Shown piece by piece: positions 33-59,651 of a DNA stretch of 64,000 nucleotides (position 1 is the first letter of the stretch; every line of letters begins with the position of its first letter). The notes under the pieces were generated by a model. It worked only from the letters and a program-made list of their open reading frames with translations, made no database searches and was not told where the DNA came from. A program made the position numbers and the translations under genes. The DNA comes from a virus, in IMG/VR virus record IMGVR_UViG_3300045988_157201; one strand, given 5' to 3'.

Positions 33-278
33 ATGGCACAAGATACTGTGAATCTAAAATTCTTTAAGTGTAATGCTTGTAAATGTATTTTTGAAACAAC
101 TATAGATGATTGTGATTGGGTTTGCCCAATTAATTCTGCAACTACAGTTTTTATATCACTTTGCCCGTCTTGTGGGAAAGTATGTTATAAAGAAGAAATA
201 AAGGAACAAACAATAAGAGAAAAAGAACTTGAAATAAACGAACTCAAGAAAAGAAATGAAGAAAAGGAAACAATTTGA
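33..278 (+). CDS. small Cys-rich zinc-ribbon-like protein
   Basis: 81-aa ORF with paired cysteines (CNACKC, CDWVCP, CPSCGKVC). TGA stop overlaps the TTG start of the next ORF. Confidence 0.45.
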   Translation: MAQDTVNLKFFKCNACKCIFETTIDDCDWVCPINSATTVFISLCPSCGKVCYKEEIKEQTIREKELEINELKKRNEEKETI

Positions 279-520
279 TAAAAATAGAAAATGAATGTGT
301 AGATTGTCCTAAAGAAATAGGTTGTATTGGCGACCTATGCCCTTACAAAAATGTTACACGATATTATTGCGATTGTTGTGAGCAAGAGAGTGAACTATAC
401 AATTTTGACGGAGAAGAGTTGTGCGAGGATTGCGTAAGAGCAAGACTTAAAGAGTGTTTTGATGGTTATACACTTAAAGAACAGGCAGAAATATTAGGAC
501 TTGATTTGAGTAAAGCTTAA
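275..520 (+). CDS. small Cys-rich protein
   Basis: 81-aa ORF with CVDCP, CPY, CDCC, CEDC cysteine pairs. TTG start coupled to the upstream stop (TTGA). Confidence 0.45.
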   Translation: MIKIENECVDCPKEIGCIGDLCPYKNVTRYYCDCCEQESELYNFDGEELCEDCVRARLKECFDGYTLKEQAEILGLDLSKA

Positions 521-561
521 ACATTAAATAAAATACAATTTAAAATAAAGGAGAATAATTA

Positions 562-1209
562 ATGCTTTATTTAACAGATTTAAGTTTAAAATATGCAATA
601 GATATATGTTTAACAAAGCCAAAATATGTAGTGTATATTGCAGAACTTGATGATATTAGTATTAAAAAAACTTTTTATTATTTACTTGGTAAAATCACTG
701 ATGATTCAATTGCCGGCAAAGGATTTACTAATACATTTGGTGAAATCGACTTTCGGAATGGGAGTTACATCCGTGTTATTGATGCGTCAACAACAGCAAA
801 ATATAATCATTGCCACTTGCTAATTGTTGATAATAAAATTGACATTGATACAAGGGAAATATTAAAAGCATTTGAAATAAGAAATTATGATAAAGAAAAA
901 GAAATTGAAGAAAAATTTAATAAGGAAACAAAAGGAGAACAACTTATGAATATAGTACAGGTTAATTTTATTAATAGTATTACGCAGAAAAGATATACAT
1001 ATAAAGTTCCAAACGGCATTAGCCTTAACAAAGGTGATATTATTCGAGTGAGAAATAAAGACGGTAAAGAAGCTATTGCCGTTTGTGCAACCGATAGTGA
1101 AAATCTTTCTGATAATGCCGTTGATATGGTTATGGACGGTCTTGATGTATTGAGCGATGTTATAGGTGTTTATAACTTAGTTAAATTTCAGGAGACGACT
1201 AATGAGTAA
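562..1209 (+). CDS. hypothetical protein
   Basis: 215-aa ORF with AAGGAG about 8 nt upstream of the ATG. Its stop overlaps the start of the next gene (ATGAGTAA). No motif recognised. Confidence 0.5.
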   Translation: MLYLTDLSLKYAIDICLTKPKYVVYIAELDDISIKKTFYYLLGKITDDSIAGKGFTNTFGEIDFRNGSYIRVIDASTTAKYNHCHLLIVDNKIDIDTREILKAFEIRNYDKEKEIEEKFNKETKGEQLMNIVQVNFINSITQKRYTYKVPNGISLNKGDIIRVRNKDGKEAIAVCATDSENLSDNAVDMVMDGLDVLSDVIGVYNLVKFQETTNE

Positions 1210-6981: not shown

Positions 6982-7200
6982 ATGGATAAAATGATTTTTA
7001 CAGTTAAAGAAGTTTCAGAGATAATTCATACCAATCAAACATATGTATATTCATTAATTAAATCAGGTTTGCTACCAGCTTTAAAGCTCGGTTCATATAA
7101 AATACGGAAAGAAACTTTGGCTAAATTTCTTGAAGATTACGAAGGTTGTGACTTGACAAACCCCTTTGAATATGTGTATAATAAACAAGCACATAGTTGA
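6982..7200 (+). CDS. excisionase-like helix-turn-helix DNA-binding protein
   Basis: 72 aa. FTVKEVSEIIHTNQTYVYSLIKSGLLPALKLGSYKIRKETL matches the Xis/MerR-type HTH_17 pattern. It sits immediately before the attP-like region and faces int. Confidence 0.6.
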   Translation: MDKMIFTVKEVSEIIHTNQTYVYSLIKSGLLPALKLGSYKIRKETLAKFLEDYEGCDLTNPFEYVYNKQAHS

Positions 7201-7232
7201 TATTTACTGGCACTTACTATTACCACTCGTCT

Positions 7233-7617
7233 TTTTGGTGGACAATTTCCATATTCTCTTTTCTGTCCTCTTTTTGTCCACCAAAATTGAGTTGGCTTAA
7301 ATTATTACAGATTAAAATAAGTTATAATAAGTTATTCATTATTGGATTATTTGACTATTTTTGTGTGTTTAAAGTCATAATAAATTAGAATAAGTTATAA
7401 TAAATTAAAATCTGGAAAACGGTTTAAGAGTGGGTAATAACCCGATGGTAGGCGCTACAGTTGCATGTGCAGTTGCAGTTTACGAGGGATTAAATAAATA
7501 AATATAGCCACTTTTAAGGATAAACGATAATAATTACTACTTTACAATATATCTCATATACTATTTAAATCACCGTTTGTCCACCATTTGTCCACCAAAG
7601 AATAAGGGCGTGGACAA
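7233..7617. promoter_or_regulatory. attP-like recombination region (arm-type repeats plus GC-rich core candidate)
   Basis: Five copies of TTGTCCAC(C): 13-bp inverted pair TTTTGGTGGACAA (7233-7245) / TTGTCCACCAAAA (7274-7286), two direct copies (7576-7596), one inverted (7609-7617). ATAAGTTATAATAA repeated at 7327-7340 and 7400-7413. GC-rich island at 7410-7500. Confidence 0.5.
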
Positions 7618-7631
7618 ATGATAATACCACA

Positions 7632-7667
7632 TAAAAAAATAAGGAGTAGATTTAATTTCTACTCCTT
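7632..7667 (-). terminator. rho-independent terminator of int
   Basis: 10-bp perfect stem AAGGAGTAGA / TCTACTCCTT (7641-7650, 7658-7667) followed on the minus strand by a U-run (plus-strand A-run 7633-7639). Confidence 0.7.
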
Positions 7668-7704
7668 ATAATTTTGCCCTTTTGTTTCAATTTCTGTTTA
7701 ACAT

Positions 7705-8904
7705 TTATTTAAACATTCCATTAAGAATGTTATTGCCCTTTTCATTTAATTTATCTGAAGCGTGTTGATATACTTGCATTGTAACGGATATATCTTTATG
7801 ACCTAACCTTTCTTGTGTGTATTTTATCGGCGCGTCTGCTTCAGCTAACATTGTAGCGTGAGTATGTCTAAAAGAATGAAAGGTGAACTCTTTAAAGCCC
7901 AAATTGTAATGAATAACTCGACTTGTGTTTTGCATAGTGCGAGGGTTGATATAGCTTCCGTCCTGTCTTACAGTAACAAGATTAATCCTTTTTCCCACAC
8001 CTGTGTCATTTAAAAAATTATTTTCATCTCTGTATTGATGTTTATATAACTCTTTATAAAAAACTTCTGCCCTTTGTTGTTTATCCTTTTCCTCTAATAA
8101 TAGGTTACATAATTCATCATCTATTCCAATCGTTCTAAATGAATTATATTTAGGATTTGAAAAATACCACTTATGTTTTGATTCATCCCATTGAACTTGC
8201 TTGTTGATTGAAATTGTTTTATTTTCAAAATCAATATCATCCCAAGTTAAAGCATATGCTTCACCTAATCGTAATCCACATTTATATCCTAACTGCATAG
8301 GGATATAAGTAGGGCTTCCTTCTGGAAATCTTTTAAATATTTTTGCTATCCATTCTTGAGGAATATAAACATTTGGGTGACTCTTTGTTGGGCTATTTGG
8401 AACTGCTCTTTTAGACGGCATTTCAACATCTTCCATAGGATTGACTTGTATAAACTTTGCTGTCTTTATAGCATAAATTAAAGATTTATTTATAATATGT
8501 TTCAAGGCATCAAGCGTATTAAAAGAATAACCCTTGTTAAACATATCAAATATAAAATTTTGAAGTAACATTGTTGATATAGATTTTAATTTATATTTTC
8601 CGAAATACGGCTTAATATAAAGTCTTATCTTTTTTTCATAGTTTGTTACAGTAGTAAGGACAAGGTTATTTCGACAATCTTTCTCCATCCAAAAATCAAG
8701 ATAATCACTATATGATATTTCGGACGGAGTAAAGGACACTCCTGTATTATTATATTCTGCAAGGGCTTTAACTCCCGCTTCTAAAGCTTCTTTTTTCGTT
8801 TTGAAACCGCTTTTTGTAATCTGATTTCTTTTTCCCCCAATTTTCGCTGCTTCAAATCTGTACTCCCATTTATTACCACGCTTTCTTGTGGTAACTTCTG
8901 CCAT
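7705..8904 (-). CDS. int: tyrosine recombinase (phage integrase)
   Basis: C-terminal HSFRHTHATML...GHKDISVTMQVYQH (R-H-R-Y family signature) and an N-terminal SAM-like arm/core-binding region. Start taken at MAEVTTRKRGNKWEYRF after GGAGTGAT. Confidence 0.9.
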   Translation of the reverse strand: MAEVTTRKRGNKWEYRFEAAKIGGKRNQITKSGFKTKKEALEAGVKALAEYNNTGVSFTPSEISYSDYLDFWMEKDCRNNLVLTTVTNYEKKIRLYIKPYFGKYKLKSISTMLLQNFIFDMFNKGYSFNTLDALKHIINKSLIYAIKTAKFIQVNPMEDVEMPSKRAVPNSPTKSHPNVYIPQEWIAKIFKRFPEGSPTYIPMQLGYKCGLRLGEAYALTWDDIDFENKTISINKQVQWDESKHKWYFSNPKYNSFRTIGIDDELCNLLLEEKDKQQRAEVFYKELYKHQYRDENNFLNDTGVGKRINLVTVRQDGSYINPRTMQNTSRVIHYNLGFKEFTFHSFRHTHATMLAEADAPIKYTQERLGHKDISVTMQVYQHASDKLNEKGNNILNGMFK

Positions 8905-8935
8905 TTTTATCACTCCTTTTATATAAATTATTTTT

Positions 8936-8964
8936 AGTATAGCAAAACTAAAATTATAAGTCAA
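8936..8964 (-). promoter_or_regulatory. sigma-A type promoter for int
   Basis: On the minus strand: TTGACT, 17 nt, TATACT. Located about 30 nt upstream of the int start. Confidence 0.5.
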
Positions 8965-9132: not shown

Positions 9133-9630
9133 ATGGAAATGAAAATGAAACAGTATATAATTACCGAACTTAGAGAGAAAGCCGGATTAAGTCAAGAAGA
9201 ACTTGCTAACAAAATCGGAGTAACTCGTCAACAGGTGTCACGATGGGAAAATATTGCGTACAACGAAAGAACAAATATATCAGAAGAAAACACAAAGAAA
9301 TTAGAAGAATTATTTGGTGTAGAAAGTATTAACAATTATAATTTTCTTGATAATAAAGAAGAATTAATACAGTTAGCAAGAGAGGACGGCAGATACGCAG
9401 CTACTTATGCAAAAGAACATAATAAGCAAAGAGAACTGTCAGTTTTTCGTAATAAAGTAGTTAGAGCAATAGAAGGACAAGATAGAGATGGTGTTTTGGG
9501 TAACTTATTACAAATTTCTTGCTTATGCAATTATGAAATCCAAAGTTTTTACACAATGTTACAAAGCAAAGAGTTGTTTAAAGACCTTGTTTATAGTTTT
9601 ATAACAAGTTCGTGTGCAAGCATAGAATAA
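9133..9630 (+). CDS. XRE-family HTH transcriptional repressor (CI-like)
   Basis: N-terminal LREKAGLSQEELANKIGVTRQQVSRWEN HTH_3 pattern. Divergent from int. AAGGAGA RBS. The C-terminal domain shows no S24 peptidase motif. Confidence 0.75.
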   Translation: MEMKMKQYIITELREKAGLSQEELANKIGVTRQQVSRWENIAYNERTNISEENTKKLEELFGVESINNYNFLDNKEELIQLAREDGRYAATYAKEHNKQRELSVFRNKVVRAIEGQDRDGVLGNLLQISCLCNYEIQSFYTMLQSKELFKDLVYSFITSSCASIE

Positions 9631-35472: not shown

Positions 35473-37308
35473 TTAATTACACAAAGGAACATAATTGTTT
35501 ACAGAAGTTCCTCCTGCCAACTCATAATCAGACTTTCTTCTCAAATGATATAAAAAATGACCTAACATAATGAAAGTATAGAAACGGTCATCGTGCATTT
35601 TGTTTTCTTTATCTTTTGGGAGTGCATATATAACATTTTTACTTGAATTATTCGTAAAACGATGAATTGAAGTAATTTCACTTTTTAAAGCATCAATGTT
35701 TAAAAGTGCATTTTCTTGCTCATCAGTAAGAGAAATATCTTTATAAATTTCTTCGTTTTCTTTGTTTTCATCATTTTCATAAATTCTTATACTGCCATTA
35801 CCACTATATTCTTTAGGAAATTTTATTAAATCCATTGATAACATTTCAAGCGTTTCTTCGACCATAATGCGTTTCATTGCACGAGGGTCAATGAGTTCAA
35901 CTTTATCTAAAGCGTTTGGATAAAGCTCATCATAATTTTCATACAATTTATAATCCCGGTCTATTAATCCCTTGTGTTTCTTTCCAGACTTATCTTCCCA
36001 ATCTCGCAACAGGCGGTCGCCATATTGCTGACCGCCACCGCCAGCACCAGAGTCAATTAGCAATTTATAAACAAATTCATAATCAGGAGCATTACCATTA
36101 TAATCAACCAACATTTGCCTGATTATTTCAATCTGTTTATTTGAATCAAGTTTATATCCGTGCTTATTACCAATATCTACCAAATTTACACAATTAACAA
36201 TTCGACCATAATATCCGATTTCATCATCAAAACAAATTTCCATTACAGTAACGACACTGTTATCTATTGTTCTTGCCGGGTCAAATGCAAGAACATACAT
36301 ATGTTTACCTTCCCTAAACAAGACAGGAAATTCAAATATTGAATTTCTTACAACGGTTCCCATTTTGATTATTTGATTCACACCGCCATCAACAATTGGT
36401 TGATTATAATACTCTCTTAATGCCTTTATACGATTAACTTTTAATGCCGCCTCTACTTTGTCCATAGTCAACAAAGGAGTCCATTTTTGCCCCTCTATAT
36501 AAACTTCTATAGCAGTTGTACAATCCATATCACAACAGAAATAATTTCTATCTCCGGCAATCATCCGCTTTGCAAATTCCTTATAATGCTTATAGAAAAT
36601 TGTTGTTGTATCATTCTGTGAAGAAGCATAGACCAACTGTGTAGGGCATTGTCTTTTTTCAATTTTAGGCGAATATGTATCTTGTGTAGATGTTTTAAAA
36701 TCTGTATTCTGAGTTGCAAAGGCTTCGCAGACAGCTATCAGTTCATCGTTACAAAAAGCAGCTTCATCAAAAAATACAAGTGTTGCACGCCTACTTCTTG
36801 TGTTATCTGGCTTTGAGTTAAGTGTACAAATCTGACTGCCATTAAAAAATTCAACGGAATATCCACTTGAAAGATGAGAAAAACCTGTTTGTGACGGAGG
36901 CTTGATAACAATTTCATTCTTTACAATAGGCTTTAAACTTTTTATCGAATTAGCTGTTTTGCCTGTATTGAGAATAATCTCCTCAATCTTTGAAAATGTT
37001 TCTTTTGCCTGTCCGCCAACAGACGATATAATATAAATAGACTGATTCTCATAAAGAATAGCTTTTAAAATTATAAATATTGAACCAAGGAATGATTTGC
37101 CAAAGTTTCGACTGCAGCACCAAACAGAGTGACCTGCGTTCCAAGCAGATTGTAAAATATATTTTTGGCTATCAAGTAGCTTAATGCCTAATAAATCTTC
37201 GCAAGCAATACAAGGATTCTTTCTGTAAAACTCAATCATCTTGGCATCAAGTTCAGCAATTCTGCGTTTTCTCTCAGTCATAATCAGTCTGGTTTTACTC
37301 TGAATCAT
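35473..37308 (-). CDS. terminase large subunit
   Basis: 611 aa. Walker A-like SRNFGKSF, Walker B LVFFDEAAF, C-terminal nuclease-size domain. Overlaps the upstream gene. Confidence 0.8.
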   Translation of the reverse strand: MIQSKTRLIMTERKRRIAELDAKMIEFYRKNPCIACEDLLGIKLLDSQKYILQSAWNAGHSVWCCSRNFGKSFLGSIFIILKAILYENQSIYIISSVGGQAKETFSKIEEIILNTGKTANSIKSLKPIVKNEIVIKPPSQTGFSHLSSGYSVEFFNGSQICTLNSKPDNTRSRRATLVFFDEAAFCNDELIAVCEAFATQNTDFKTSTQDTYSPKIEKRQCPTQLVYASSQNDTTTIFYKHYKEFAKRMIAGDRNYFCCDMDCTTAIEVYIEGQKWTPLLTMDKVEAALKVNRIKALREYYNQPIVDGGVNQIIKMGTVVRNSIFEFPVLFREGKHMYVLAFDPARTIDNSVVTVMEICFDDEIGYYGRIVNCVNLVDIGNKHGYKLDSNKQIEIIRQMLVDYNGNAPDYEFVYKLLIDSGAGGGGQQYGDRLLRDWEDKSGKKHKGLIDRDYKLYENYDELYPNALDKVELIDPRAMKRIMVEETLEMLSMDLIKFPKEYSGNGSIRIYENDENKENEEIYKDISLTDEQENALLNIDALKSEITSIHRFTNNSSKNVIYALPKDKENKMHDDRFYTFIMLGHFLYHLRRKSDYELAGGTSVNNYVPLCN

Positions 37309-45543: not shown

Positions 45544-46026
45544 TCATTTATTTTCACCCTCCTCAACAGGCTGATTCGTTATTTGTTTCATCAAGTCTCT
45601 TTTCCATCTAATTTTCTTCTCTCTCGGTACACCGTTATCACGACATCTGTTTCCGCTCCATATCACGCCTCCCGCACTTCCTTCGCAGACAAAATTGCTT
45701 GCTCGTAAACTCACACCACTCTCCGATTGCAATGTGTAGGTTATTATCTTTTTATAGCCCATATTTTTTGCAATTCTACAGCACGCACCGTATAGCATAC
45801 TACACCCATTCTTGTATCCATCAAGTACGCAAACCCTGTTAATTTCGCACGTTTCGCCATTATCATAATATCTGCTCACAGGTCTGCCACATACAGCACA
45901 ACCAATTAATTTTGCATTATCATACAACCCAACGCAAAACTTACATCCTACAGTCGCATTATGATGTCTGTGATGTAAATTGATAAAGTTACTTGCTTCT
46001 CTAAATGTCACAGGCTTAATTTCCAT
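45544..46026 (-). CDS. GNAT-fold protein of the XF1762/Mom-like type (possible DNA base modification enzyme)
   Basis: EASNFINLHHRHHNATVGCKFCVGLY ... INRVCVLDGYKNGCSMLYGACCRIAKNMGYKKIITYTLQSESGVSLRASNF matches my recollection of the Mom-related acyltransferase family. Not verified by search. Confidence 0.45.
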   Translation of the reverse strand: MEIKPVTFREASNFINLHHRHHNATVGCKFCVGLYDNAKLIGCAVCGRPVSRYYDNGETCEINRVCVLDGYKNGCSMLYGACCRIAKNMGYKKIITYTLQSESGVSLRASNFVCEGSAGGVIWSGNRCRDNGVPREKKIRWKRDLMKQITNQPVEEGENK

Positions 46027-46112
46027 CACTCTTCACCGCCCTCAATAGGAATATGCTGATTCCAACATTCAACGCAGTTATGACCTTTTCTTGTAATACC
46101 AAACATACGATT

Positions 46113-47318: not shown

Positions 47319-48374
47319 TTATTCTTCTCCAAACTCACCATCACTTTCTGCTATTTCTTTCTGTAATTTTTTCATTCTTCTATTTTCAATTTTCTTTTTA
47401 TGCTTTAAAAATATGCAATCCAAATATTCCTTGTCTTTAGGCAATGAATACATATTCTTATAGGATTTTCCAATATGCTTATCCCACTGACTTCTTGAAT
47501 ATAAAATACCATTTTCCCTCAAAAGGTTTATGTGATTTAAAATACCATTTTGAGTCATCCCTGTCATATTGCTAAGATTTTTATAAGATAACCAAGCAAT
47601 TTGATTATTAAAGTATTTTGTACGCTTAGACATAAGAAATGTCATTGTACAAAACAATTTCAAAACCAATACAGAACTAACTCCATTTATCTGACTACAT
47701 TGTGGTAACCAACTATTATATATAGCAATTTTATCTTTCCTTGATTCACCATTAAAGAATGGTTTAAACAATAACCTTATATATTCATCTGATAATTTAA
47801 AACCTCGTGTATCAATTTCTTTATTGAAAATGCGATTATATCTACTTATGAAATCAACCTTACGCTTTTTTGAGTATCCTACAGAAGTGATATACCCATA
47901 CTTCTGCATTTCGTATAATCCCTCATAAAAGTAACTTTCCATTTTCTTTAAATGAATCTCATTAAAATCAGGAAACATCTCCATCAAGACAAGTCTGAAA
48001 TTAAACTTTGAAACAAATTCCTCAAATCTGATTAAAGTTAGATTGATTAATTTGGTTTTATTCTCATCATTTTCAATTCTCGCATAATATTTTTCTATGA
48101 CTGTCAAAGGATAATCAACCTTGATTAAATTATAAATAGGTTCATAGCTCTTCAACTTTTCATCAGTTCGCTTTTTTATCAAGGACTGCCTTGATAAATG
48201 AAGTTCGTATTTTGCTCCGGCTTTCACATAGTTAAAACTTTTCTGAATAATATAATACGCTAACAAAAGTTTCTGATTGTAGCTTTTGCTTATGGGATTA
48301 ATCAATGAACTCTTATCTATAATAGTCATAATTGCATTTTCACCATCAGGTTTCCAAAAATAAATAATTATCAA
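47319..48374 (-). CDS. putative winged-helix DNA-binding / replication-initiator-like protein
   Basis: First gene left of the ORF-free region. The C-terminal WLSYKNLSNMTGMTQNGILNHINLLRENGILY is wHTH-like. The start is ambiguous: TTG abuts the RBS, in-frame ATA/ATT lie at +3 to +9, and there is an ATG at 48329. Confidence 0.35.
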   Translation of the reverse strand: MIIIYFWKPDGENAIMTIIDKSSLINPISKSYNQKLLLAYYIIQKSFNYVKAGAKYELHLSRQSLIKKRTDEKLKSYEPIYNLIKVDYPLTVIEKYYARIENDENKTKLINLTLIRFEEFVSKFNFRLVLMEMFPDFNEIHLKKMESYFYEGLYEMQKYGYITSVGYSKKRKVDFISRYNRIFNKEIDTRGFKLSDEYIRLLFKPFFNGESRKDKIAIYNSWLPQCSQINGVSSVLVLKLFCTMTFLMSKRTKYFNNQIAWLSYKNLSNMTGMTQNGILNHINLLRENGILYSRSQWDKHIGKSYKNMYSLPKDKEYLDCIFLKHKKKIENRRMKKLQKEIAESDGEFGEE

Positions 48375-48850
48375 CCCCTTTTACTTCTTTTTTATTTACA
48401 GTAAGCAATTACAATGAATATTTGCTGTTTCTATATGCAGATATTGCAGAAAACTATTTTTTCAAAACCATTTTTTTGTATCACATTTGAATATATTATA
48501 TATAGGCAAGCTCCTTAGCTTAATATATATTAATTTATATAAATAATTAATTAAATATATTAATATAATAGAATAATTATTAATCTGTAAGATTAATAAT
48601 TATTCTTTCTTTGGTTCTTTCTTTATAACTCAAATAAAAAATAAAAAATAATCTCAAAAAAAATAAAAAATATAAAATGAGTCACCGTAAAGTAAATATT
48701 AACTTGTCAAGGAACACAAGAATGTATGCAATGTAATTGTTGAGTTCGCTTTTTACAAAAGCGGAATGAAAAATATTATGGACAACCCTGAAATGGTAAG
48801 TCCATAAAAACAATTCAGTCGTTGTAAAAAACGAAATAAATTACATTTTA

Positions 48851-48879
48851 ATTATACACAACGATACATAAAAAGTCAA
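48851..48879 (-). promoter_or_regulatory. consensus sigma-A promoter (early-left)
   Basis: Minus strand TTGACT (48879-48874), 17-nt spacer, TATAAT (48856-48851). This implies a leader of about 470 nt before 48374. Confidence 0.6.
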
Positions 48880-49410
48880 GAGAAATATTAAAAAAATCTG
48901 AAAAATATTTCCTAAGTGCATTTCCAAAATGCCAAGTTTAATATTTCTAAGTGCCAAAATGGCACTTAAGGTTAGCCAGAAAGAGCATAACAATGTGTTA
49001 TCTGAACATCAGTAGAGAAATAAATGTCAGTATGAAATAAACATACATATGTAATAGAAAAATTTGACCTATAAGACGAGTTTATGAGTTAGGAATGAAA
49101 TTATATTCTTGAAAGATTATAAATGCCTTACAGGTCAAATAAATACATATAAATAGTATATTCACTTATTAGATATGTTTGCCAACAGTAAACCATTATT
49201 GTATTATACCTTTAAACGGCTTAGAATTGACTTGTATTGAGTTTTATGCGTTTATGTATGAATTTATATTAATTACTAAAAAATGCAATACAAGTCAAAT
49301 GAGAGCATTTTAGAGATAAGTGGATTGGTGTAATTGTAGTTTGAGTTAAGTTTTTACCGAAGTTAAAGCGAGGAATTAGTCTATGGCAAGCTACATAAGA
49401 AGTATGGCGT

Positions 49411-49472
49411 TAAATTAATTATTTTTGATTATTCGTCAGCAAGCTGTCTCATAATCAAAAATAATTAATTTA
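49411..49472. repeat. 22-bp perfect inverted repeat with 18-nt loop
   Basis: TAAATTAATTATTTTTGATTAT (49411-49432) and ATAATCAAAAATAATTAATTTA (49451-49472). Confidence 0.85.
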
Positions 49473-49794
49473 ACTTTGGCGTACCCAAAATTCGCAAAGC
49501 TCATTTTGTTTACGCTGACAAAAAAAGATATTGAGATTTCTGTTTTAGGGGAGTGAGTTTATGGGTGTAAATCAGGAATATAAAAATAGCCTGCTAATTT
49601 ATAGCAGACTTGAGTTAATGTGGCTATTGAATTGTAGGGGTTTATTATTCTGATGTTTTTGTTTATGCAATATTATTTTAAGTAAATATTACTTTAAGTA
49701 AATTTATTAAAGTAAAATATGATATTTTATACAGTCAGTAATATAATGAATTATTTAAAACGAAAACGATAATAGGTTTTTCAGTTCACCGAAA

Positions 49795-50105
49795 GGTGTT
49801 TTGGGAATATGAGTGTAAGTTTTAAGTTGGATAAGTGTGTAAATATGGGATAAATCCTATATTTTTGTAAGGTTTAAGGTATTGAATTTGAGATTGTATT
49901 AATGAACAGGAATTTGAGGTATTTGTGGTTTAGGTCATTTTGGCTATTTTTGAGGTAGTTTGAATGGATTTGGATAGTGTTGTGTTAGGGTGATAAATGG
50001 CTATTTTATGCGGCTTTTAGGTAATAGGTGTGGGGATTGAGATATGGGTGTTTTTGGTATGAAATGAGGGTTTAGGTGGTTAAAAGGTGGTTAAAAAAAT
50101 AGGGC
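49795..50105 (+). other. C-depleted G/T-rich tract
   Basis: Hand count for 49801-50100: about 90 G versus 8 C. Degenerate GGTTTAGGT-like motifs recur. Confidence 0.85.
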
Positions 50106-50464
50106 TGAAAACGATTTTTATGGGTTCGATTCGGTGGATGAGTTCGATGGTCTTTTTAGAACTACTACGCCCTTTGTTTCAGATTAGAAGGGTTGCCAAA
50201 ATGTAAAATACCCCCCCTATGTTAGTTAGTGGTAGGTAGTAGGTAGGGCGTTGAATTATGCGGTATATCGGGGCGTGTTTTAGTGATATTTAACTTTGCA
50301 AAAACGGCTTGAATACTGTATTTTTTGAAGTTTTACGAGAAATAAAAGAGCCGGCAAAAGTCCGCAAAAGTGCAAAAAGCGGACATTTGAAAAAATGGGC
50401 AAAGATCAAGGATTACAAGATATACAGTTATATATTTACTGTTTTTGTAGTATTTTGCGGCAAA

Positions 50465-50504
50465 ATAGGGCAAGGATAAAATCTGAATAGGGCAAGGATA
50501 AAAT
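50465..50504. repeat. direct repeat (iteron-like) ATAGGGCAAGGATAAAAT x2
   Basis: Exact 18-mers at 50465-50482 and 50487-50504 (22-bp period). Confidence 0.85.
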
Positions 50505-50590
50505 TTAACAAAAAATCATTGAAAAGCGGGTGAAAAAGCGGTAAAAATTGTATTATTCAGCTAAAATTAATAATCGTTCTCATTTTGAGA

Positions 50591-50719
50591 CTTTGTTAAA
50601 ATTTTAACAAAGTTGTTCGATATCAAACAATTAACATTCTAACTATATTGTTAAAAGTTTAACAAACTTCAATCATATAAAAATAGTTCGATATCAAACT
50701 AAATCGTTAAACTTTTAAC
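50591..50719. repeat. alternating palindrome / 14-mer cluster
   Basis: 22-bp perfect palindrome CTTTGTTAAAATTTTAACAAAG (50591-50612). Related TTGTTAAAAGTTTAACAA (50648-50665) and GTTAAACTTTTAAC (50706-50719). Exact GTTCGATATCAAAC at 50615-50628 and 50686-50699. Confidence 0.85.
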
Positions 50720-51059
50720 AATATATCCGGCTGTACGCTCATATACTCATTTACGCTTTTACGCTCACGCTCATATATCAATAATCATTCAGTAATCAGC
50801 TAATCAACGTTCATTCAATCAGCTTTAATCATTACAATATATTAATTGCATTCTTGTAACACTTATTACAATTACACTTATTACAACTGCATAGCTGCAC
50901 TTGCATCAATCTACCCACCCACGCAAAAATGCCTTTTAAATGGCTTATAACGGTTCAAACAGTCAAGTAATATAATTACTCTAATAGACTATAAAAACGC
51001 TTGTAGGGCTATTTAAAAGGCTTATATAAAGTATATAAGGATAGACAAGTAAAAGTGCA

Positions 51060-51275
51060 TCAATCAATCACACCATCTCGCTTTAGGCAAGCGTAAAAAT
51101 ACTGCGTTGCTGTCTGATTATGACTGTTTAAGTAATTATCTATCTTGTCAATGTCAGTTAATTTTATGCAAATAGTGCGATTTTTATATGTTTTCGCTTG
51201 ATATTTTGCACTTGCACGCAACTGTGCAGCTGTACTTTTTTTAATTTTTGGTTGTATATTATTATTAATAGTCAT
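51060..51275 (-). CDS. small basic DNA-binding-type protein (ribbon-helix-helix-like?)
   Basis: 71 aa. The N-terminal KKSTAAQLRASAKYQAKTYK then RTICIKL (beta-strand) then helices. The only minus-strand gene right of the ORF-free region. Confidence 0.35.
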   Translation of the reverse strand: MTINNNIQPKIKKSTAAQLRASAKYQAKTYKNRTICIKLTDIDKIDNYLNSHNQTATQYFYACLKRDGVID

Positions 51276-51311
51276 AATTAATCATTTCTTGTATAATATA
51301 TATAAAAATAA

Positions 51312-51376
51312 TATAAATATTAGTGATATGTTTTTGCAAAATTACACTTGTAAAGTATAAATATTAGTGATATAAT
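51312..51376 (+). promoter_or_regulatory. rightward promoter(s) with an 18-bp direct repeat
   Basis: TTGTAA (51348-51353), 17 nt, extended -10 TGATATAAT (51368-51376). Alternative: TTGCAA (51334-51339), 16 nt, TATAAA. TATAAATATTAGTGATAT repeated at 51312-51329 and 51356-51373. Confidence 0.5.
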
Positions 51377-51935
51377 AGTGTCAACGAAAAGAGATAAAGA
51401 AACAAAAAAACAAATACATAATATCTCATATCGTTATTGTAGAAATTCAATTGTTACAACTCACAACACAAATATTTTAAACATTTTAATTGTGTTGCGT
51501 AAATCAAAAAATGTTCGTACCTTGAAAACTGAATGAACTTGCAACAGTCTTGAGCCTGCACACATCTATACATTAGTATAGTAGTAGTGCCTCTAAAGTC
51601 CTTAGACGAAGTATGTCAAAATTCGCATAAAGAAAAATAGCAATAAAAAATGTACTATTGAATGTATGCGACCGGCGATATATTGAACCTTTGAGCTTTA
51701 AGCCCTCAATGAAGATAGCTATTACTATGCCGTCAATGGGTGAAGTGCACCCTTCAAGCTGTTGATACTCAAGTCAAACCTTTATTTTTGATTTTAATTA
51801 TTTTAACTTTTTAGGCGATTGCACAAAACAGTAATAATAATTATAGCGTTTATTTTGTGTAAATTGCATAATTTAAAAAGCTGATTTTGTGCAATCTATA
51901 AAGAGTTAAAATACTCTTAATGTGTAATTTCCATA

Positions 51936-51964
51936 ATTATACATTAAATACATAAAAAAGTCAA
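51936..51964 (-). promoter_or_regulatory. consensus sigma-A promoter (leftward, faces the rightward promoter)
   Basis: Minus strand TTGACT (51964-51959), 17-nt spacer, TATAAT (51941-51936). Confidence 0.55.
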
Positions 51965-51991
51965 GAAAAAATTTAAAAGGAGTAAATAAAA

Positions 51992-52252
51992 ATGACAAAA
52001 GAGGCTATATATAAAAGATATAAGAATCAAAAGCCAGTGGGGACTGTATGTTTTAGTAATACTTTTGGGCTTCAGGTTTACGAGCCTGACGAAAACGATA
52101 AATACGATTGTGATTATATATGCAGTTGGTACAGCGGCGAGAGAGAGTGTGGATTCCATAAGCATATGGTGCACTACTCAACTTCGGGTAGGGCTTTTAT
52201 TAGAAAAGGCTCTTTAAGAATCTATCTGGATGAAGTCATGAGAACTGCATAA
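51992..52252 (+). CDS. hypothetical early protein
   Basis: 86-aa ORF with AAAGGAG RBS. Confidence 0.5.
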   Translation: MTKEAIYKRYKNQKPVGTVCFSNTFGLQVYEPDENDKYDCDYICSWYSGERECGFHKHMVHYSTSGRAFIRKGSLRIYLDEVMRTA

Positions 52253-52278
52253 AAAGTCGTTGCGGCGACTAAAAAAAG

Positions 52279-52328
52279 ACCGTTAGGATGCAAGCGTTCC
52301 GCCCATTGTGGGCGGAGGTCGGGAAACC
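52279..52328 (+). promoter_or_regulatory. GC-rich conserved stem-loop element, copy 1
   Basis: Stem TTCCGCCC (52297-52304) / GGGCGGAG (52310-52317), loop ATTGT. Homologous to 54696-54748, including the flanks. Confidence 0.6.
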
Positions 52329-54649: not shown

Positions 54650-54695
54650 AACTATAATATAGAGCCGTCAAAGCCGTCAAGCCGGCTATAAACAG

Positions 54696-54748
54696 TCCAT
54701 TAAGGCTTGAGCGTTCGCCTGCCATTGTGGTGGGCGAGGTTGGAAACA
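54696..54748 (+). promoter_or_regulatory. GC-rich conserved stem-loop element, copy 2
   Basis: Stem TTCGCCTGCC (54714-54723) / GGTGGGCGAG (54729-54738), loop ATTGT. Two extra stem positions relative to copy 1 are G-U/U-G pairs. Confidence 0.6.
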
Positions 54749-56588: not shown

Positions 56589-59500
56589 ATGAAATATATT
56601 GTTGAAAATTTGATAATTCCACAAGATAAACGGGCAGAGATTAACAACAAAATTCTTTATTTGATTGACAACGGAATAGCGGAAGAAAACGGAATAACTG
56701 CAACTGACATAGCAAGCTCATACACCGGAAACGGTGGATTAAGTGGAGAAAAATTTTCAAACTATGAAAATTATTATGATTATTCAGAAGCCAAAAAAGA
56801 ATTTGAACAAGGACAGTTTTTTACACCGTATGCCATTACCGATTTTGTAATACAATGTTTGAAGCCGGACAAATTCGATATAATTATGGATTTAACTTGT
56901 GGTCACGGAGCTTTTGTAAATTCCGTTCCCCAGGAAAGTAATTTCTTTGGTTGTGAAATTGATATGAAATCTTATAAGGTTGCAAAATATTTATACCCAA
57001 AAGCAAATATCCAGTGTTCAGATATAAGAGTATATAATCCTGAAATAAGAGCAGATGTCATTGTCGGAAATCCACCATTTAATTTGAAGTGGCAAATCGG
57101 AGATACGACTTATGTATCACAACTATACTACACAATTAAAGCATCGGAGAATATTAAACCGGGTGGTTTAATGGCTCTGGTAGTTCCATCAAGTTTTCTG
57201 GCGGATGATTTTTCCGATAGAGGAATGATAGAAGAGGTTTCAAAAGAATGGAATCTATTATGTCAGTTTGACATTCCTTCAGATACATTCAAAAATCTCG
57301 GCGTTACTAATTTTTCTACTAAAATTATGTTTTTTCAAAAGAAAAGCGAACATATTTTAGATGTAAAATTTAGCACGAAAAAAATTGTAATTGATTGTCT
57401 TAATATAGAATCTTCAAATTTCATTTATGAAAATTATATAAAGCCTGTAATCACTTTAAGAAATGAGTTGAAAAATCGGTTGTTTTTTGAAAATTTACAC
57501 GATGGCAAGACTCAAGAACAAAAACAATTTGAATATAAAGTTAAAAAAATGATGTTTGATATTAAGAGAAATCCTGCTTTACAGGATAAATATGCAAAAT
57601 GCAGCGAGTATCTTTACAAATACCAAACACAGAAAATGCCAGAAGGAATGAAGTATGAAGAATGGGAAAAGAAGAAAATCACGCCTAATAAGGTACTTGC
57701 TTATTTAAGAAAAGTTATCAAATCTGAACATAAAATCGAAATTGATAAGATTGAATTAGTAAAAACTGATTATGGCTTAAAGTTAAAACCATATAGCCGT
57801 AAAATGAAAATCTTATTGAATAAACAATATGGAGATTTTGGAAAATTTGTATCTATTAACGATATTGTTTCAGGTCAATGTTCATATCAATTTGAAAACA
57901 AAAAGTATGAAAAACTTATTGATAAGAAAATTAAAGATTTTCAAAGTAATGAAGTATCATTTAAGGATATGGAACAAAATTCTGATATAATGAAATTTCT
58001 TGATAATTTTTCTATCCACGATTATAACAAAAATGAAACTTATAAGTTGACGGAAAAGCAAAAAGAAGATATAAATAAACTTTTGCAAAAAAGATATGTT
58101 TTCTTGCAGTGGGAACAGGGTAGCGGAAAAACTTTTGCCGGCATAGCTCAAATGGATTATAGATTCCAACACAACAATATCAGAAATGCTTTTGTAGTCT
58201 CTACTGCTATTGCGATAAATAACAACTGGCAAGATTGCCTTGAGGCTTACCATTATGACTATATAAGAATCAATAGTTATTCGGATATTCAGAAAATTAA
58301 AAAAGGACAAATTGTTTTAATTACTCTTGATATACTCAATACTTTACAAAAACATATTAAGAAATTTGTTAAAATGCAATCTCAAAAAGTTATGCTTGTA
58401 ATGGATGAAAGCGATAGCATATCAAATCAAAATAGTAAGAGAACAAAAGCAGTATTAAGTTGTTTTAGAAAAATTAAATACAAAGTATGTATGACCGGAA
58501 CAAGCACACGAAACAATATTTGTGAAATTTACCCTCAACTTGAATTGCTTTACAATAATAGCGTTAATATGTTGTGTGAATGTGAAACTGTTTATATTGT
58601 GGATAAAAATAAGGATTCTGAAACCAAAGGCGAAATTATTTCCGATTTTAATGAACAATATAATAATCCATTCCCAGCATATAAGAAAGGATATTCATTA
58701 TTCAGCAAATGTTTTCTGCCAGATAAAATCACTGTATTTGGAGTTGTTAAAAAGACACAAGATATATATAATTCAGAAGCATTGAAAAGGTTGCTTGACA
58801 AAACAGTAATCACAAGGAAATTTGAAGAAGTCACAGGCAAGAAAATTTACGAAATTAAAAATGTCACTTGTAAATTCACACCGGAAGAAGAAGCACTATA
58901 TTCAATAGCAATAGAGGAATTTTATAAAATGCAATATCTATTTAAGACAACAGGAAACAGCAGAAAAGATGCTATGTTGAGAATCTTAAATCAATTAACT
59001 CTTTTGCTTAAAATATGTGCTTGTCCTCACACATTCAAAGAATATTCTTCAACTGAATTGTCGAGTAAATATAAAAAAGTATTTGAGATGATTGAAAAGT
59101 GGAATAATGAAAGAATTGTAATAGGTGTTCGCCACGTTGACAATGTTTATTCTTATGCCACAGCAATTAAGGAATTATATCCGAATAGACCATTGTTTGT
59201 TATTACCGGAAATAACACGACATTAAAGAAAAGAATATCAATTTGTAATGAACTGAAAAAAACAAGAAATGGTATTTTAATTTGCACACAGCAATCATTA
59301 TCGTGCAGTATGAATATTGACTTTGTAAATAAGTGTATTATTCCAGAATTGCACTGGAATAATGCAAGTATGAGTCAGTTTTATTTTCGATTTATCAGAT
59401 TCACTTCTACGGAATGGAAGAAAATATATTTTGTAACTTATGAAAACAGTATAGAAGGAAATCTGTTAAAAATGATTCTGTGTAAAGAAAAATTGAACCT

Positions 59501-59651
59501 TTTTATGAAAGATGAAAAAGTCGAAGATGATGACCTATATAACAAGTTTGGGATTAACGAAATGATGCTAAAGGCGTTAATGACAAAAGAAAAGGATGAG
59601 AAAGGCAATATTAAAATCTTATGGGGTCATCAAAAAATCACAAACGATTAA
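56589..59651 (+). CDS. N6-adenine DNA methyltransferase fused to an SNF2/DEAD-like helicase
   Basis: The N-terminus has DLTCGHGAF (motif I) and VGNPPFNLKW (NPPF motif IV). The C-terminal half has EQGSGKTF (Walker A), VMDESDSI (DExx), MTGTSTRNN (motif III) and QFYFRFIRF (motif VI-like). Confidence 0.75.
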   Translation: MKYIVENLIIPQDKRAEINNKILYLIDNGIAEENGITATDIASSYTGNGGLSGEKFSNYENYYDYSEAKKEFEQGQFFTPYAITDFVIQCLKPDKFDIIMDLTCGHGAFVNSVPQESNFFGCEIDMKSYKVAKYLYPKANIQCSDIRVYNPEIRADVIVGNPPFNLKWQIGDTTYVSQLYYTIKASENIKPGGLMALVVPSSFLADDFSDRGMIEEVSKEWNLLCQFDIPSDTFKNLGVTNFSTKIMFFQKKSEHILDVKFSTKKIVIDCLNIESSNFIYENYIKPVITLRNELKNRLFFENLHDGKTQEQKQFEYKVKKMMFDIKRNPALQDKYAKCSEYLYKYQTQKMPEGMKYEEWEKKKITPNKVLAYLRKVIKSEHKIEIDKIELVKTDYGLKLKPYSRKMKILLNKQYGDFGKFVSINDIVSGQCSYQFENKKYEKLIDKKIKDFQSNEVSFKDMEQNSDIMKFLDNFSIHDYNKNETYKLTEKQKEDINKLLQKRYVFLQWEQGSGKTFAGIAQMDYRFQHNNIRNAFVVSTAIAINNNWQDCLEAYHYDYIRINSYSDIQKIKKGQIVLITLDILNTLQKHIKKFVKMQSQKVMLVMDESDSISNQNSKRTKAVLSCFRKIKYKVCMTGTSTRNNICEIYPQLELLYNNSVNMLCECETVYIVDKNKDSETKGEIISDFNEQYNNPFPAYKKGYSLFSKCFLPDKITVFGVVKKTQDIYNSEALKRLLDKTVITRKFEEVTGKKIYEIKNVTCKFTPEEEALYSIAIEEFYKMQYLFKTTGNSRKDAMLRILNQLTLLLKICACPHTFKEYSSTELSSKYKKVFEMIEKWNNERIVIGVRHVDNVYSYATAIKELYPNRPLFVITGNNTTLKKRISICNELKKTRNGILICTQQSLSCSMNIDFVNKCIIPELHWNNASMSQFYFRFIRFTSTEWKKIYFVTYENSIEGNLLKMILCKEKLNLFMKDEKVEDDDLYNKFGINEMMLKALMTKEKDEKGNIKILWGHQKITND

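Follow-up and report, generated by a model that had tools for sequence, protein, structure and literature searches.

A conserved 2.7-kb gene-free hub between two divergent gene arms of a gut phage genome as a candidate replication origin and control region

Replication origins and early control regions are unknown for nearly all uncultured gut phages. In this study, we analyze one candidate, a hub of 2685 nt at positions 48375-51059 of a 64-kb stretch of viral DNA (IMG/VR virus record IMGVR_UViG_3300045988_157201; the whole 64-kb stretch is referred to as the window), located where two gene arms diverge and the cumulative GC skew reaches its minimum. The hub carries no open reading frame (ORF) of 60 amino acids or more on either strand and is the largest such gap in the window, followed by an adjoining gap of 668 nt (51276-51943) and a third of 426 nt. 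A first-pass annotation of this DNA had described the ORF-free divergence point, listed its elements and suggested that it might hide a giant structured RNA. The hub proved genuine, conserved and non-coding, and nearly every listed element was recovered where it had been placed; the RNA suggestion fared less well (see below).

Comparisons were made with three sets of sequences: type A, about a dozen close relatives; type B, a divergent lineage in which the winged helix-turn-helix (wHTH) protein encoded beside the hub is only 28% identical; and farther lineages retrieved through the conserved core described below (loci are cited by L number). Reading TGA or TAG as a sense codon leaves the hub without a long ORF, and alternative genetic codes were set aside, as only TAA as a sense codon opens long ORFs, a trivial outcome in AT-rich DNA. 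No peptides are shared among the type-A, type-B and L040 hubs. A blastn search of the hub DNA against 50,697 phage records returned no match, the c2, bIL67 and 923 ori types included, and no DNA similarity to known phages and plasmids was found.

The left part of the locus is built from the following elements.

48375-51059, unstranded: whole ORF-free hub, the largest gap in the window without an ORF of 60 amino acids or more
48520-48569, unstranded: pure A/T tract, promoter-rich, a candidate DNA-unwinding element, with a 65-nt C-free and a 52-nt G-free run from 48519-48520
48570-48624, plus strand: 17-bp hairpin (perfect arms 48570-48586 / 48590-48606) followed by the conserved T-rich box CTTTCTTTGGTTCTTTCTTT, terminator-like
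48730-48845, minus strand: 115-nt leader hairpin directly downstream of PL1, folding z -6.2 (minus) and -4.5 (plus)
48851-48879, minus strand: PL1, consensus sigma-70-type leftward promoter TTGACT-17-TATAAT, 11/12 matches
48948-48968, unstranded: operator-like palindrome TAAGTGCCA-AAA-TGGCACTTA, ~70 nt upstream of PL1
49063-49299, unstranded: TTGACYTRTA-type sites in two inverted pairs (49063-49075/49127-49139 and 49226-49239/49286-49299), with 46-51 nt between the arms of a pair

The promoter (48879-48851), the hairpin and the palindrome had all been noted in the first pass, where the hairpin (48570-48606) was given 16 bp rather than its perfect 17-nt arms. PL1 heads the 37-kb leftward arm and has a 24-nt near-copy at 51955-51978; in type B, a leftward promoter occupies the corresponding place (L020 485-458). 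Sigma-70-like promoter matches as a class are not enriched in the hub (33 against 27.8 +/- 5.9 expected). The leader hairpin is 98-100% identical across six relatives, and type B has a different set of hairpins at this offset. Similarly, the hairpin at 48570-48606 is replaced in type B by one of unrelated sequence at the same position, with the T-rich box retained. The type-B hairpin qualifies in a terminator scan (18 pairs, 6 of them G-C), whereas the 17-bp stem in the window falls short of the scan's G-C criterion and is not called a terminator because it is almost all A-T; the leader of the wHTH gene may here contain an attenuator or a short antisense RNA. The type-B counterpart of the A/T tract is ~100 nt long, and several assemblies break within it. 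Just upstream of the palindrome, relatives differ by an indel (48900-48950), which suggests a variable number of operator-like sites, and an equally spaced inverted pair is found in type B at the corresponding distance from the core (L020 583-594/644-655).

The center and right of the locus contain the elements below.

49409-49474, unstranded: long palindrome or hairpin with 32-nt arms and a 2-nt loop, z -4.9 (plus) and -8.0 (minus)
49588-49610, minus strand: hairpin with T-run bordering the C-depleted arm on the left, a terminator-like element for transcripts running leftward
49650-50160, plus strand: C-depleted, G/T-rich arm, its minus strand G-depleted and essentially unstructured
49669-49747, plus strand: three 16-nt AT-rich tandem repeats (49669-49716), then promoter-like ATGATA-17-TATAAT (49719-49747)
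50131-50217, plus strand: bipartite core, single copy in the window, with Box A GGTGGATGAGT…GAAC (GAAC at 50159-50162) and Box B AATGTAAAATACCCCCCC (50200-50217)
50360-50384, unstranded: GTCCGC-N13-GCGGAC hairpin or inverted repeat, within phased A-tracts
50464-50547, plus strand: direct repeats, two copies of AATAGGGCAAGGATAAAAT and an 11-bp GAAAAGCGGGT/GAAAAAGCGGT repeat, with phased A-tracts
50593-50725, unstranded: swappable cassette, 3 x TTGTTAAAAnTTTTAACAA and 2 x GTTCGATATCAAAC
50590-51059, plus strand: G-poor, C-rich arm with inverted 14-mers GCCTTTTAAATGGC (50931-50944 / 51008-51021)

The long palindrome varies at a single position, which covaries among relatives (G-C, T-A and G.A intermediates), and type B has two long palindromes of unrelated sequence, with 26- and 28-nt arms, at the same offset from the core. 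A hairpin with a T-run comparable to that at 49588-49610 was found by eye in type B (L020 1088-1127, minus strand). The C-depleted arm is the compositional extreme of the window: all eight of the 300-nt segments lowest in C, and all eight highest in GC skew, fall within 49551-50250, with C as low as 2.7% against a median of 17% and the skew of the arm reaching +0.84. When single-stranded, neither strand of the arm can form G-C pairs, and RNA of its minus strand folds with a minimum free energy of -0.5 to -5 kcal/mol per 150 nt. Upstream of the core, type B, L040, L041, L099, L106, L146 and L149-L152 also have a C-depleted arm, and the order C-poor arm, core, G-poor arm recurs in at least 10 lineages, including viral contigs of 87-175 kb and Lachnospiraceae, Robinsoniella and other Clostridia assemblies. 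Many phages and prophages of gut Clostridia carry the core together with its arms. The G-poor arm is much more extreme in L040, L149 and L146, where G falls to 2-6%. The C-depleted tract, the AT-rich repeats (annotated at 49676-49720; the 16-nt units occupy 49669-49716) and the iterons and palindromes of the first-pass annotation were likewise found in the hub.

The core follows the pattern …GAAC-N37-AATGTAAANTACCCC with a degenerate Box A, can be generalized as G(G/C)GTGTGAGTGGAACACAT - about 30 nt - AAATGTAAANTACCCC, and occurs in at least 14 lineages with a fixed spacing of 41 nt. Beyond this GC-rich segment, no part of the hub is conserved in distant lineages. We compared it with the consensus sequences of promoters and of dif/Xer, nick and CRP sites. 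Identities as a sigma-70, extracytoplasmic function (ECF) or sigma-54 promoter or as a dif/Xer or CRP-like site were dropped because, by eye, the required second element is missing or not conserved; in particular, no sigma-70 -10 element stands at a constant distance from the core in either orientation in the alignments inspected by eye. A pMV158-type nick site was rejected since CTACTACG is confined to type A. The poly-C run of Box B varies from 6 to 8 C among relatives, and L040 carries a second, slightly different copy of Box B ~700 nt upstream.

To the right of the core, the GTCCGC hairpin is present in all type-A and type-B hubs, 160-255 nt past Box B, with an invariant stem and a loop that varies at its center. 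The direct repeats at 50464-50547 differ in copy number among relatives, and A-tract phasing (10-11 bp) peaks for the whole window at 50476-50675, its strongest curvature signal. The cassette, at +393 to +525 relative to Box B, consists of three TTGTTAAAAnTTTTAACAA semi-palindromes of 18-19 bp at a spacing of 55-57 bp and two GTTCGATATCAAAC 14-mers. Close relatives that are otherwise 90-99% identical have other sets of palindromes at this position, and 1-4 tandem repeats; the number of tandem copies of an 18-bp unit, TTGATCTGTTTCAAGTTC, is 4 in L003, 2 in L006 and 1 in L009 (~50750-50900 equivalent), phages that are otherwise near-identical. Two further lineages, L040 and L149, have three perfect DnaA boxes within 34-42 bp, 280-450 nt past Box B, the relative position of the window's cassette. 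The box sequence is TTATCCACA, at 9312-9383 of L040 as oriented and at +281 to +323 from Box B in L149. Three perfect boxes in two independent lineages cannot be chance.

The hub is conserved in sequence within type A and in layout between types A and B. Identity to six relatives is 0.99 at 48560-48890 and 0.92-0.98 at 49000-50160, compared with 0.885 at third codon positions of a neighboring gene; segment 50300-50570, at 0.84-0.88, changes roughly as fast as such positions. Between types A and B only islands still align, yet a global alignment scores ~10 standard deviations above block-shuffles and the distance from T-rich box to core is 1611 nt in type A and 1621 nt in type B. With the core as the common reference point, the folding-energy profiles of the two types correlate at r = 0.29-0.34, a value reached by none of 240 circular shifts, and hairpins are exchanged for unrelated hairpins at matching offsets. 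As judged from sequence, the layout of cis-acting elements persists across lineages whose wHTH protein is 28% identical: on the left the pure-A/T tract, hairpin with T-rich box, leader hairpin and PL1, operator palindrome, TTGAC pairs and long palindrome, and on the right the leftward terminator-like hairpin, C-depleted arm, core, GTCCGC element, cassette, G-poor arm and ORF71, a small gene just beyond the hub. Some of the high local identity among these mosaic relatives could reflect recent recombination, a point we return to below.

Three features beyond the right edge belong to the same unit or face it.

51060-51275, minus strand: ORF71, a small ribbon-helix-helix (RHH)-like protein gene that points toward the hub; outside the hub, part of the unit
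51312-51376, plus strand: PR, an extended -10 rightward promoter with two operator-like TATAAATATTAGTGATAT repeats
51799-51964, unstranded: very stable hairpins over PL2, plus-strand z -8.7 to -8.9

PL2 is a leftward near-copy of PL1 at 51964-51936. It faces PR, giving ~550 nt of potential antisense overlap, and type B has an equivalent of PR (L020 2633-2661) with ATCAC-type palindromes. PR, the hairpin pair and PL2 occupy the second ORF-free stretch (668 nt, in the 51276-51990 region).

The best explanation for this locus is a composite cis-acting control region rather than the gene of a giant RNA. More specifically, we read the hub as a replication origin joined to an early and left-operon control region, to which we assign a probability of roughly 55%. 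The origin component is suggested by the A/T tract, bent DNA, iteron-like repeats, the excess of very stable local folds on both strands, the switch of skew and gene orientation, the layout kept between types A and B and the wHTH neighbor, as well as by the cassette position, where repeat sets are swapped and where DnaA boxes stand in L040 and L149. Features expected of origins are present in kind: repeated sites in the number looked for in iterons (at least three), namely three semi-palindromes, two 14-mers and the direct repeats at 50464-50547; an AT-rich candidate unwinding element (48520-48569) with bent DNA (phasing at 50476-50675); and, as in c2-type origins, a non-coding region without an ORF, bounded by promoters, between divergent early and late blocks. 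The control component is suggested by the gate in the left quarter, by PL2 and PR, and by the antirepressor genes of related hubs. The sequences show the elements, their conserved positions, the DnaA boxes of relatives and the absence of a conserved RNA fold; from these we infer that replication starts here, which proteins pair with which sites and which way transcripts run.

In the left quarter (48520-48880), PL1 would start a structured, untranslated leader ending at the terminator-like hairpin, the T-rich box and the pure-A/T tract, and this segment would gate the leftward operon. For the left quarter only, the arrangement resembles the lambda PR'-6S RNA-tR' attenuator and the countertranscript-controlled rep leaders of pT181 and pIP501: a consensus promoter, a structured untranslated leader of ~280 nt and a hairpin with T-rich box precede a 37-kb operon. 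Unlike in those systems, the hairpin in the window is all A-T, and any Q-like antiterminator or countertranscript would be hypothetical here. The center and right (49400-51059) most likely form the origin zone, in which an initiator or accessory protein would bind the array of sites in the cassette, a role that host DnaA would play in two related lineages, and two strand-asymmetric arms, whose single strands cannot fold, would flank the origin center.

Known systems offer partial parallels. In transcription-primed, R-loop origins of the ColE1 and mitochondrial (conserved sequence block II, CSBII) types, a promoter lies hundreds of nucleotides upstream, a G-rich RNA is made on a C-rich template, a G-run/C-run hybrid serves as anchor, and an accessory DnaA box and a hairpin (pas/ssi) are found on the displaced strand. 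The window has a skewed arm, a C7/G7 run in Box B and long hairpins past the arm, and its relatives have the DnaA boxes; however, the arms of the hub converge from both sides, the element is about five times larger, and no RNA I-like regulator was identified. In lactococcal c2-type phages (Ceduovirus), the origin lies in a non-coding region between divergent arms and comes in interchangeable 'ori types' (PMC7150918), and a non-coding transcript, PE1-T, has been implicated in a transcription-mediated start of replication (PMC7150918; NC_001706 annotation). The hub is similarly non-coding, without ORF or ribosome-binding site, between divergent blocks and flanked by early promoters, and the swapping of cassettes among conserved genomes resembles the alternative ori types (PMC7150918). 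The PE1-T strand has 25% G, 15% C and a G7 run (NC_001706), a G-richness and a run that a leftward transcript reaching Box B in the window would share. Unlike c2, the hub measures 2.7 kb rather than 611 bp, shows no detectable sequence similarity, and has extreme C- and G-depletion, a bipartite core, a cassette and (in relatives) DnaA boxes without a described c2 counterpart.

The first-pass annotation had judged the region far larger than a normal phage origin or operator. Size is no obstacle, since in Vibrio cholerae the PLE satellite separates its divergent operons by a non-coding region of 2.7 kb, only part of which is a RepA_N-dependent origin (PMC7145576). The two regions are alike in size, in their divergent operons and in having several repeat families, and the TTGTTAAAAnTTTTAACAA units share the form of the semi-palindromic PLE iterons, which converge on an A-tract (PMC7145576). 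They differ in host phylum and are not homologous, no RepA_N domain was found among the window proteins scanned, and neither strand-depleted arms nor a core common to other elements is reported for the PLE region.

Taken together, the core, the strand-depleted arms and the swappable cassette are an undescribed, widely shared signature of what is best explained as an origin and control hub of a generally known kind. That core and arms mark a new and widespread class of gut-Clostridia phage origin, with transcription-primed initiation, we hold to be rather unlikely as a full account. Under such a mechanism, a G-rich, C-poor transcript would form a persistent R-loop over one arm, anchored at the G-run/C-run of Box B; synthesis would displace the unfoldable strand of the other arm, and a helicase would be loaded there with the help of DnaA boxes or phage palindromes and long ssi-like hairpins. 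Arm RNA transcribed toward the center would be G-rich and favor R-loops, RNA transcribed away from it would be C-rich, G-poor and similar to Rho-utilization (rut) sites, and promoter-like sites exist at 49719-49747 (plus) and 51964-51936 (minus). The mechanism is attractive because the PE1-T strand of c2 is moderately G-rich with a G7 run. If the signature does mark an origin, a sequence rule would be at hand for locating origins in many Clostridia phages and prophages, replicons could be built for gut Firmicutes that are hard to engineer, and R-loop-primed or DnaA-assisted initiation in phages would gain a natural test case.

The main rival to the origin reading is a purely regulatory region, a transcriptional control or insulator element resembling a second immunity region in the style of P22 immI or P1 ImmI, which we consider a genuine possibility of clearly lower probability. 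Here, RHH and helix-turn-helix (HTH) regulators, operator palindromes, convergent promoters and antisense or leader RNAs would control an antirepressor/wHTH operon, and the arms would act as rut tracts for transcripts crossing the center, because the crossing RNA is C-rich, G-poor and unstructured. Much of the locus suits this reading: PL1 and PL2 are near-copies, PR opposes PL2 across ~550 nt, terminator-like hairpins stand at 48570-48624 and 49588-49610, operator-like repeats exist, and the minus-strand RNA of the left arm would be nearly structureless, as at rut sites.

Several observations that weigh against an origin bear on the same choice. An antirepressor (P22_AR_N, AntA, Bro-N) is the first leftward gene in L040, L099, L146 and L152, and small RHH or HTH regulator genes border the hub, the right flank of related hubs always being an RHH-like or HTH_26 gene; these flanks fit an immunity-type regulatory region and an origin equally well. 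The assignment of the wHTH protein (47319-48374, minus strand) as an initiator is weak. Its homologues adjoin the hub in types A and B, L040 and L031, its best clues are faint matches to HTH_36 (E 0.0017) and to the PHROG 'replication initiation O-like' (E 5.6e-4), and the type-B homologue clears the Pfam HTH_36 gathering score (29 against 25 bits). Protein databases hold just two relatives, the distant one on a contig without the upstream region, a profile search against the PDB returned no relative, a search for relatives among genome contigs gave no match, and the AlphaFold model is unusable (pLDDT 35). Moreover, no gene within +/-10 kb was found to co-vary with the cassette, the hub of the window itself has no DnaA-box cluster, DnaA boxes can serve as transcriptional operators, and recent recombination may account for part of the sequence identity, as noted above.

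What the purely regulatory reading leaves unexplained is the DnaA-box clusters of two lineages, the phased A-tracts, the pure-A/T tract and a 2.7-kb length conserved to within 10 nt. By eye, the core lacks a sigma-70 -10 element at a fixed distance in either orientation, and a single intrinsic terminator would insulate far more cheaply.

A packaging or terminus region (pac, cos or a concatemer junction), with the core as terminase recognition or cut site, is improbable. It would account for a single-copy, highly conserved 17-20-mer between polarized arms, and it likens the G-rich strands of the hub, which run 5'->3' toward the core, to the arrays that flank the terminal repeats of T7. Several assemblies also break where the AT tract borders the type-B hub on the left. 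These breaks, however, fall at four positions in a low-complexity AT run, a related 100.2-kb contig nearly closes on itself, no contig ends at the core, and the large terminase gene is 11 kb away (35473-37308). Contig ends were accordingly discarded as genome termini, being scattered in low-complexity AT sequence.

One or more large structured RNAs, whether GOLLD-, ROOL- or OLE-like or of a new class, are very unlikely to be encoded in the hub. The idea draws on the hub being big, conserved, non-coding and rich in stable local folds, on hairpins that hold their position while their sequence changes, and on Pistol ribozymes in the adjacent operon (see below), which mark this phage as a user of structured RNAs. 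About 21% of 150-nt segments of the hub have z < -3 and 11% have z < -4, as against 3% and 0% of 96 segments from the coding arm, an excess of about sevenfold, and inverted repeats, as first noted, are enriched together with these folds. Yet, like DNA palindromes, the folds score on both strands, some 500 nt of the hub is incapable of any G-C pair, and the structures of types A and B differ in form and do not make one family. Scans with Rfam 15 over 48375-51059 gave nothing at gathering score (GOLLD, ROOL, OLE, HEARO, 6S and all other families), only eukaryotic miRNA- and snoRNA-type noise at E<=10 (19-30 bits against cut-offs of 43-83), and no tRNA or tmRNA was found in the hub.

The deeply conserved part of the hub tells the same story. 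The GC-rich segment at 50165-50280, for which several helices had been proposed in the first pass, exists as described, but the helices are unsupported: it folds no better than shuffles (z about +1), and RNAalifold recovers 0 conserved pairs in the core on either strand with 10 and then 14 diverse homologues. Of the candidate helices, GCCCUU/AAGGGU is broken (AAGAG or ACGAG) in most close relatives, and ACGCCC/GGGCGU, which looks compensatory by eye between types A and B, is not recovered by RNAalifold. A large, conserved, hairpin-rich and ORF-free block of phage DNA is thus, by itself, not evidence for a giant structured RNA.

Finally, decayed genes or neutral spacer, hardly credible and already largely refuted, would match the lack of ORFs and the near third-codon rate (0.84-0.88) of 50300-50570, but not a hub that mostly exceeds third-codon-position conservation, keeps its length in lineages with a flanking protein 28% identical, shares no peptide remnants and has a core found in at least 14 lineages.

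The window represents most of a ~100-kb temperate siphovirus-like phage, probably of gut Clostridia; its close relatives, at ~90% identity, are viral and metagenomic contigs from the human gut, 95-103 kb long. The 100.2-kb related contig closes on itself except for ~13 nt, so the phage map is circular or permuted. The long leftward arm ends at 48374; beside the hub its operon encodes the wHTH protein, a Mom-like protein and others, followed by structural and lysis genes. An endolysin, a portal protein and a 1971-amino-acid ORF of tape-measure size are also encoded in this arm, together with the genes below.

7705-8964, minus strand: integrase, leftward arm
9133-9630, plus strand: repressor-like HTH gene, within the leftward arm
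35473-37308, minus strand: large terminase (TerL), leftward arm, 11 kb from the hub

Beside the integrase gene, an Xis-like HTH ORF is followed by a non-coding, attP-like (phage attachment site) stretch (6990-7700) with repeated arm-type sites, TTGTCCACC / GGTGGACAA. The integration module therefore lies 40 kb from the hub, and the hub was rejected as attP, the repeated TTGTCCACC sites being at 6990-7700.

ORF71 is kept in types A and B, L146, L148 and L149, and its only domain match is a weak one (E 0.05), between the L146 homologue and RHH_7. ORF71 was rejected as the cassette binder because its alleles and the cassettes assort independently. A search for further hubs through ORF71 homologues ended at a conserved chromosomal locus of a gut bacterium that is very common and annotated as Ruminococcus sp., where homologues 59-79% identical stand in the order ValRS, ORF71-like, MerR, MatE on hundreds of contigs (loci L125-L136). 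These homologues suggest gene exchange between phage and host and hint at a Clostridia host.

On one side of the hub region lies a Mom-like DNA-modification gene (45544-46029, minus strand) and on the other a fused N6-methylase/SNF2-helicase of DarB-like type (56589-59651, plus strand), while the start of the window encodes thymidylate-synthase-like, dNMP-kinase-like and dUTPase proteins; together these genes hint at modified DNA. In L148, a large viral contig, a TnpB/Cas12f-like (OrfB_IS605) gene (75-1193, minus strand) sits ~2.3 kb left of the hub core.

The rightward early arm begins near 52 kb and encodes a methylase-helicase of 1020 amino acids, kin of one in Clostridium phage D-1873. In L018 and L019, the helicase module is 98% identical to that of the window, and everything upstream of the equivalent of 54792 is wholly different and gene-dense, so the hub and early genes behave as an exchangeable module. 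Across the window, Rfam 15 identified only two Pistol ribozymes, both full-length and outside the hub, at 52255-52323 and 54672-54744 (plus strand; 62.4 and 57.3 bits, gathering score 34.5). They fill short gaps between consecutive ORFs of the rightward operon, just past the stop codons at 52252 and 54649, and the first is 90-94% identical in relatives in which the preceding ORF is only ~50% identical.

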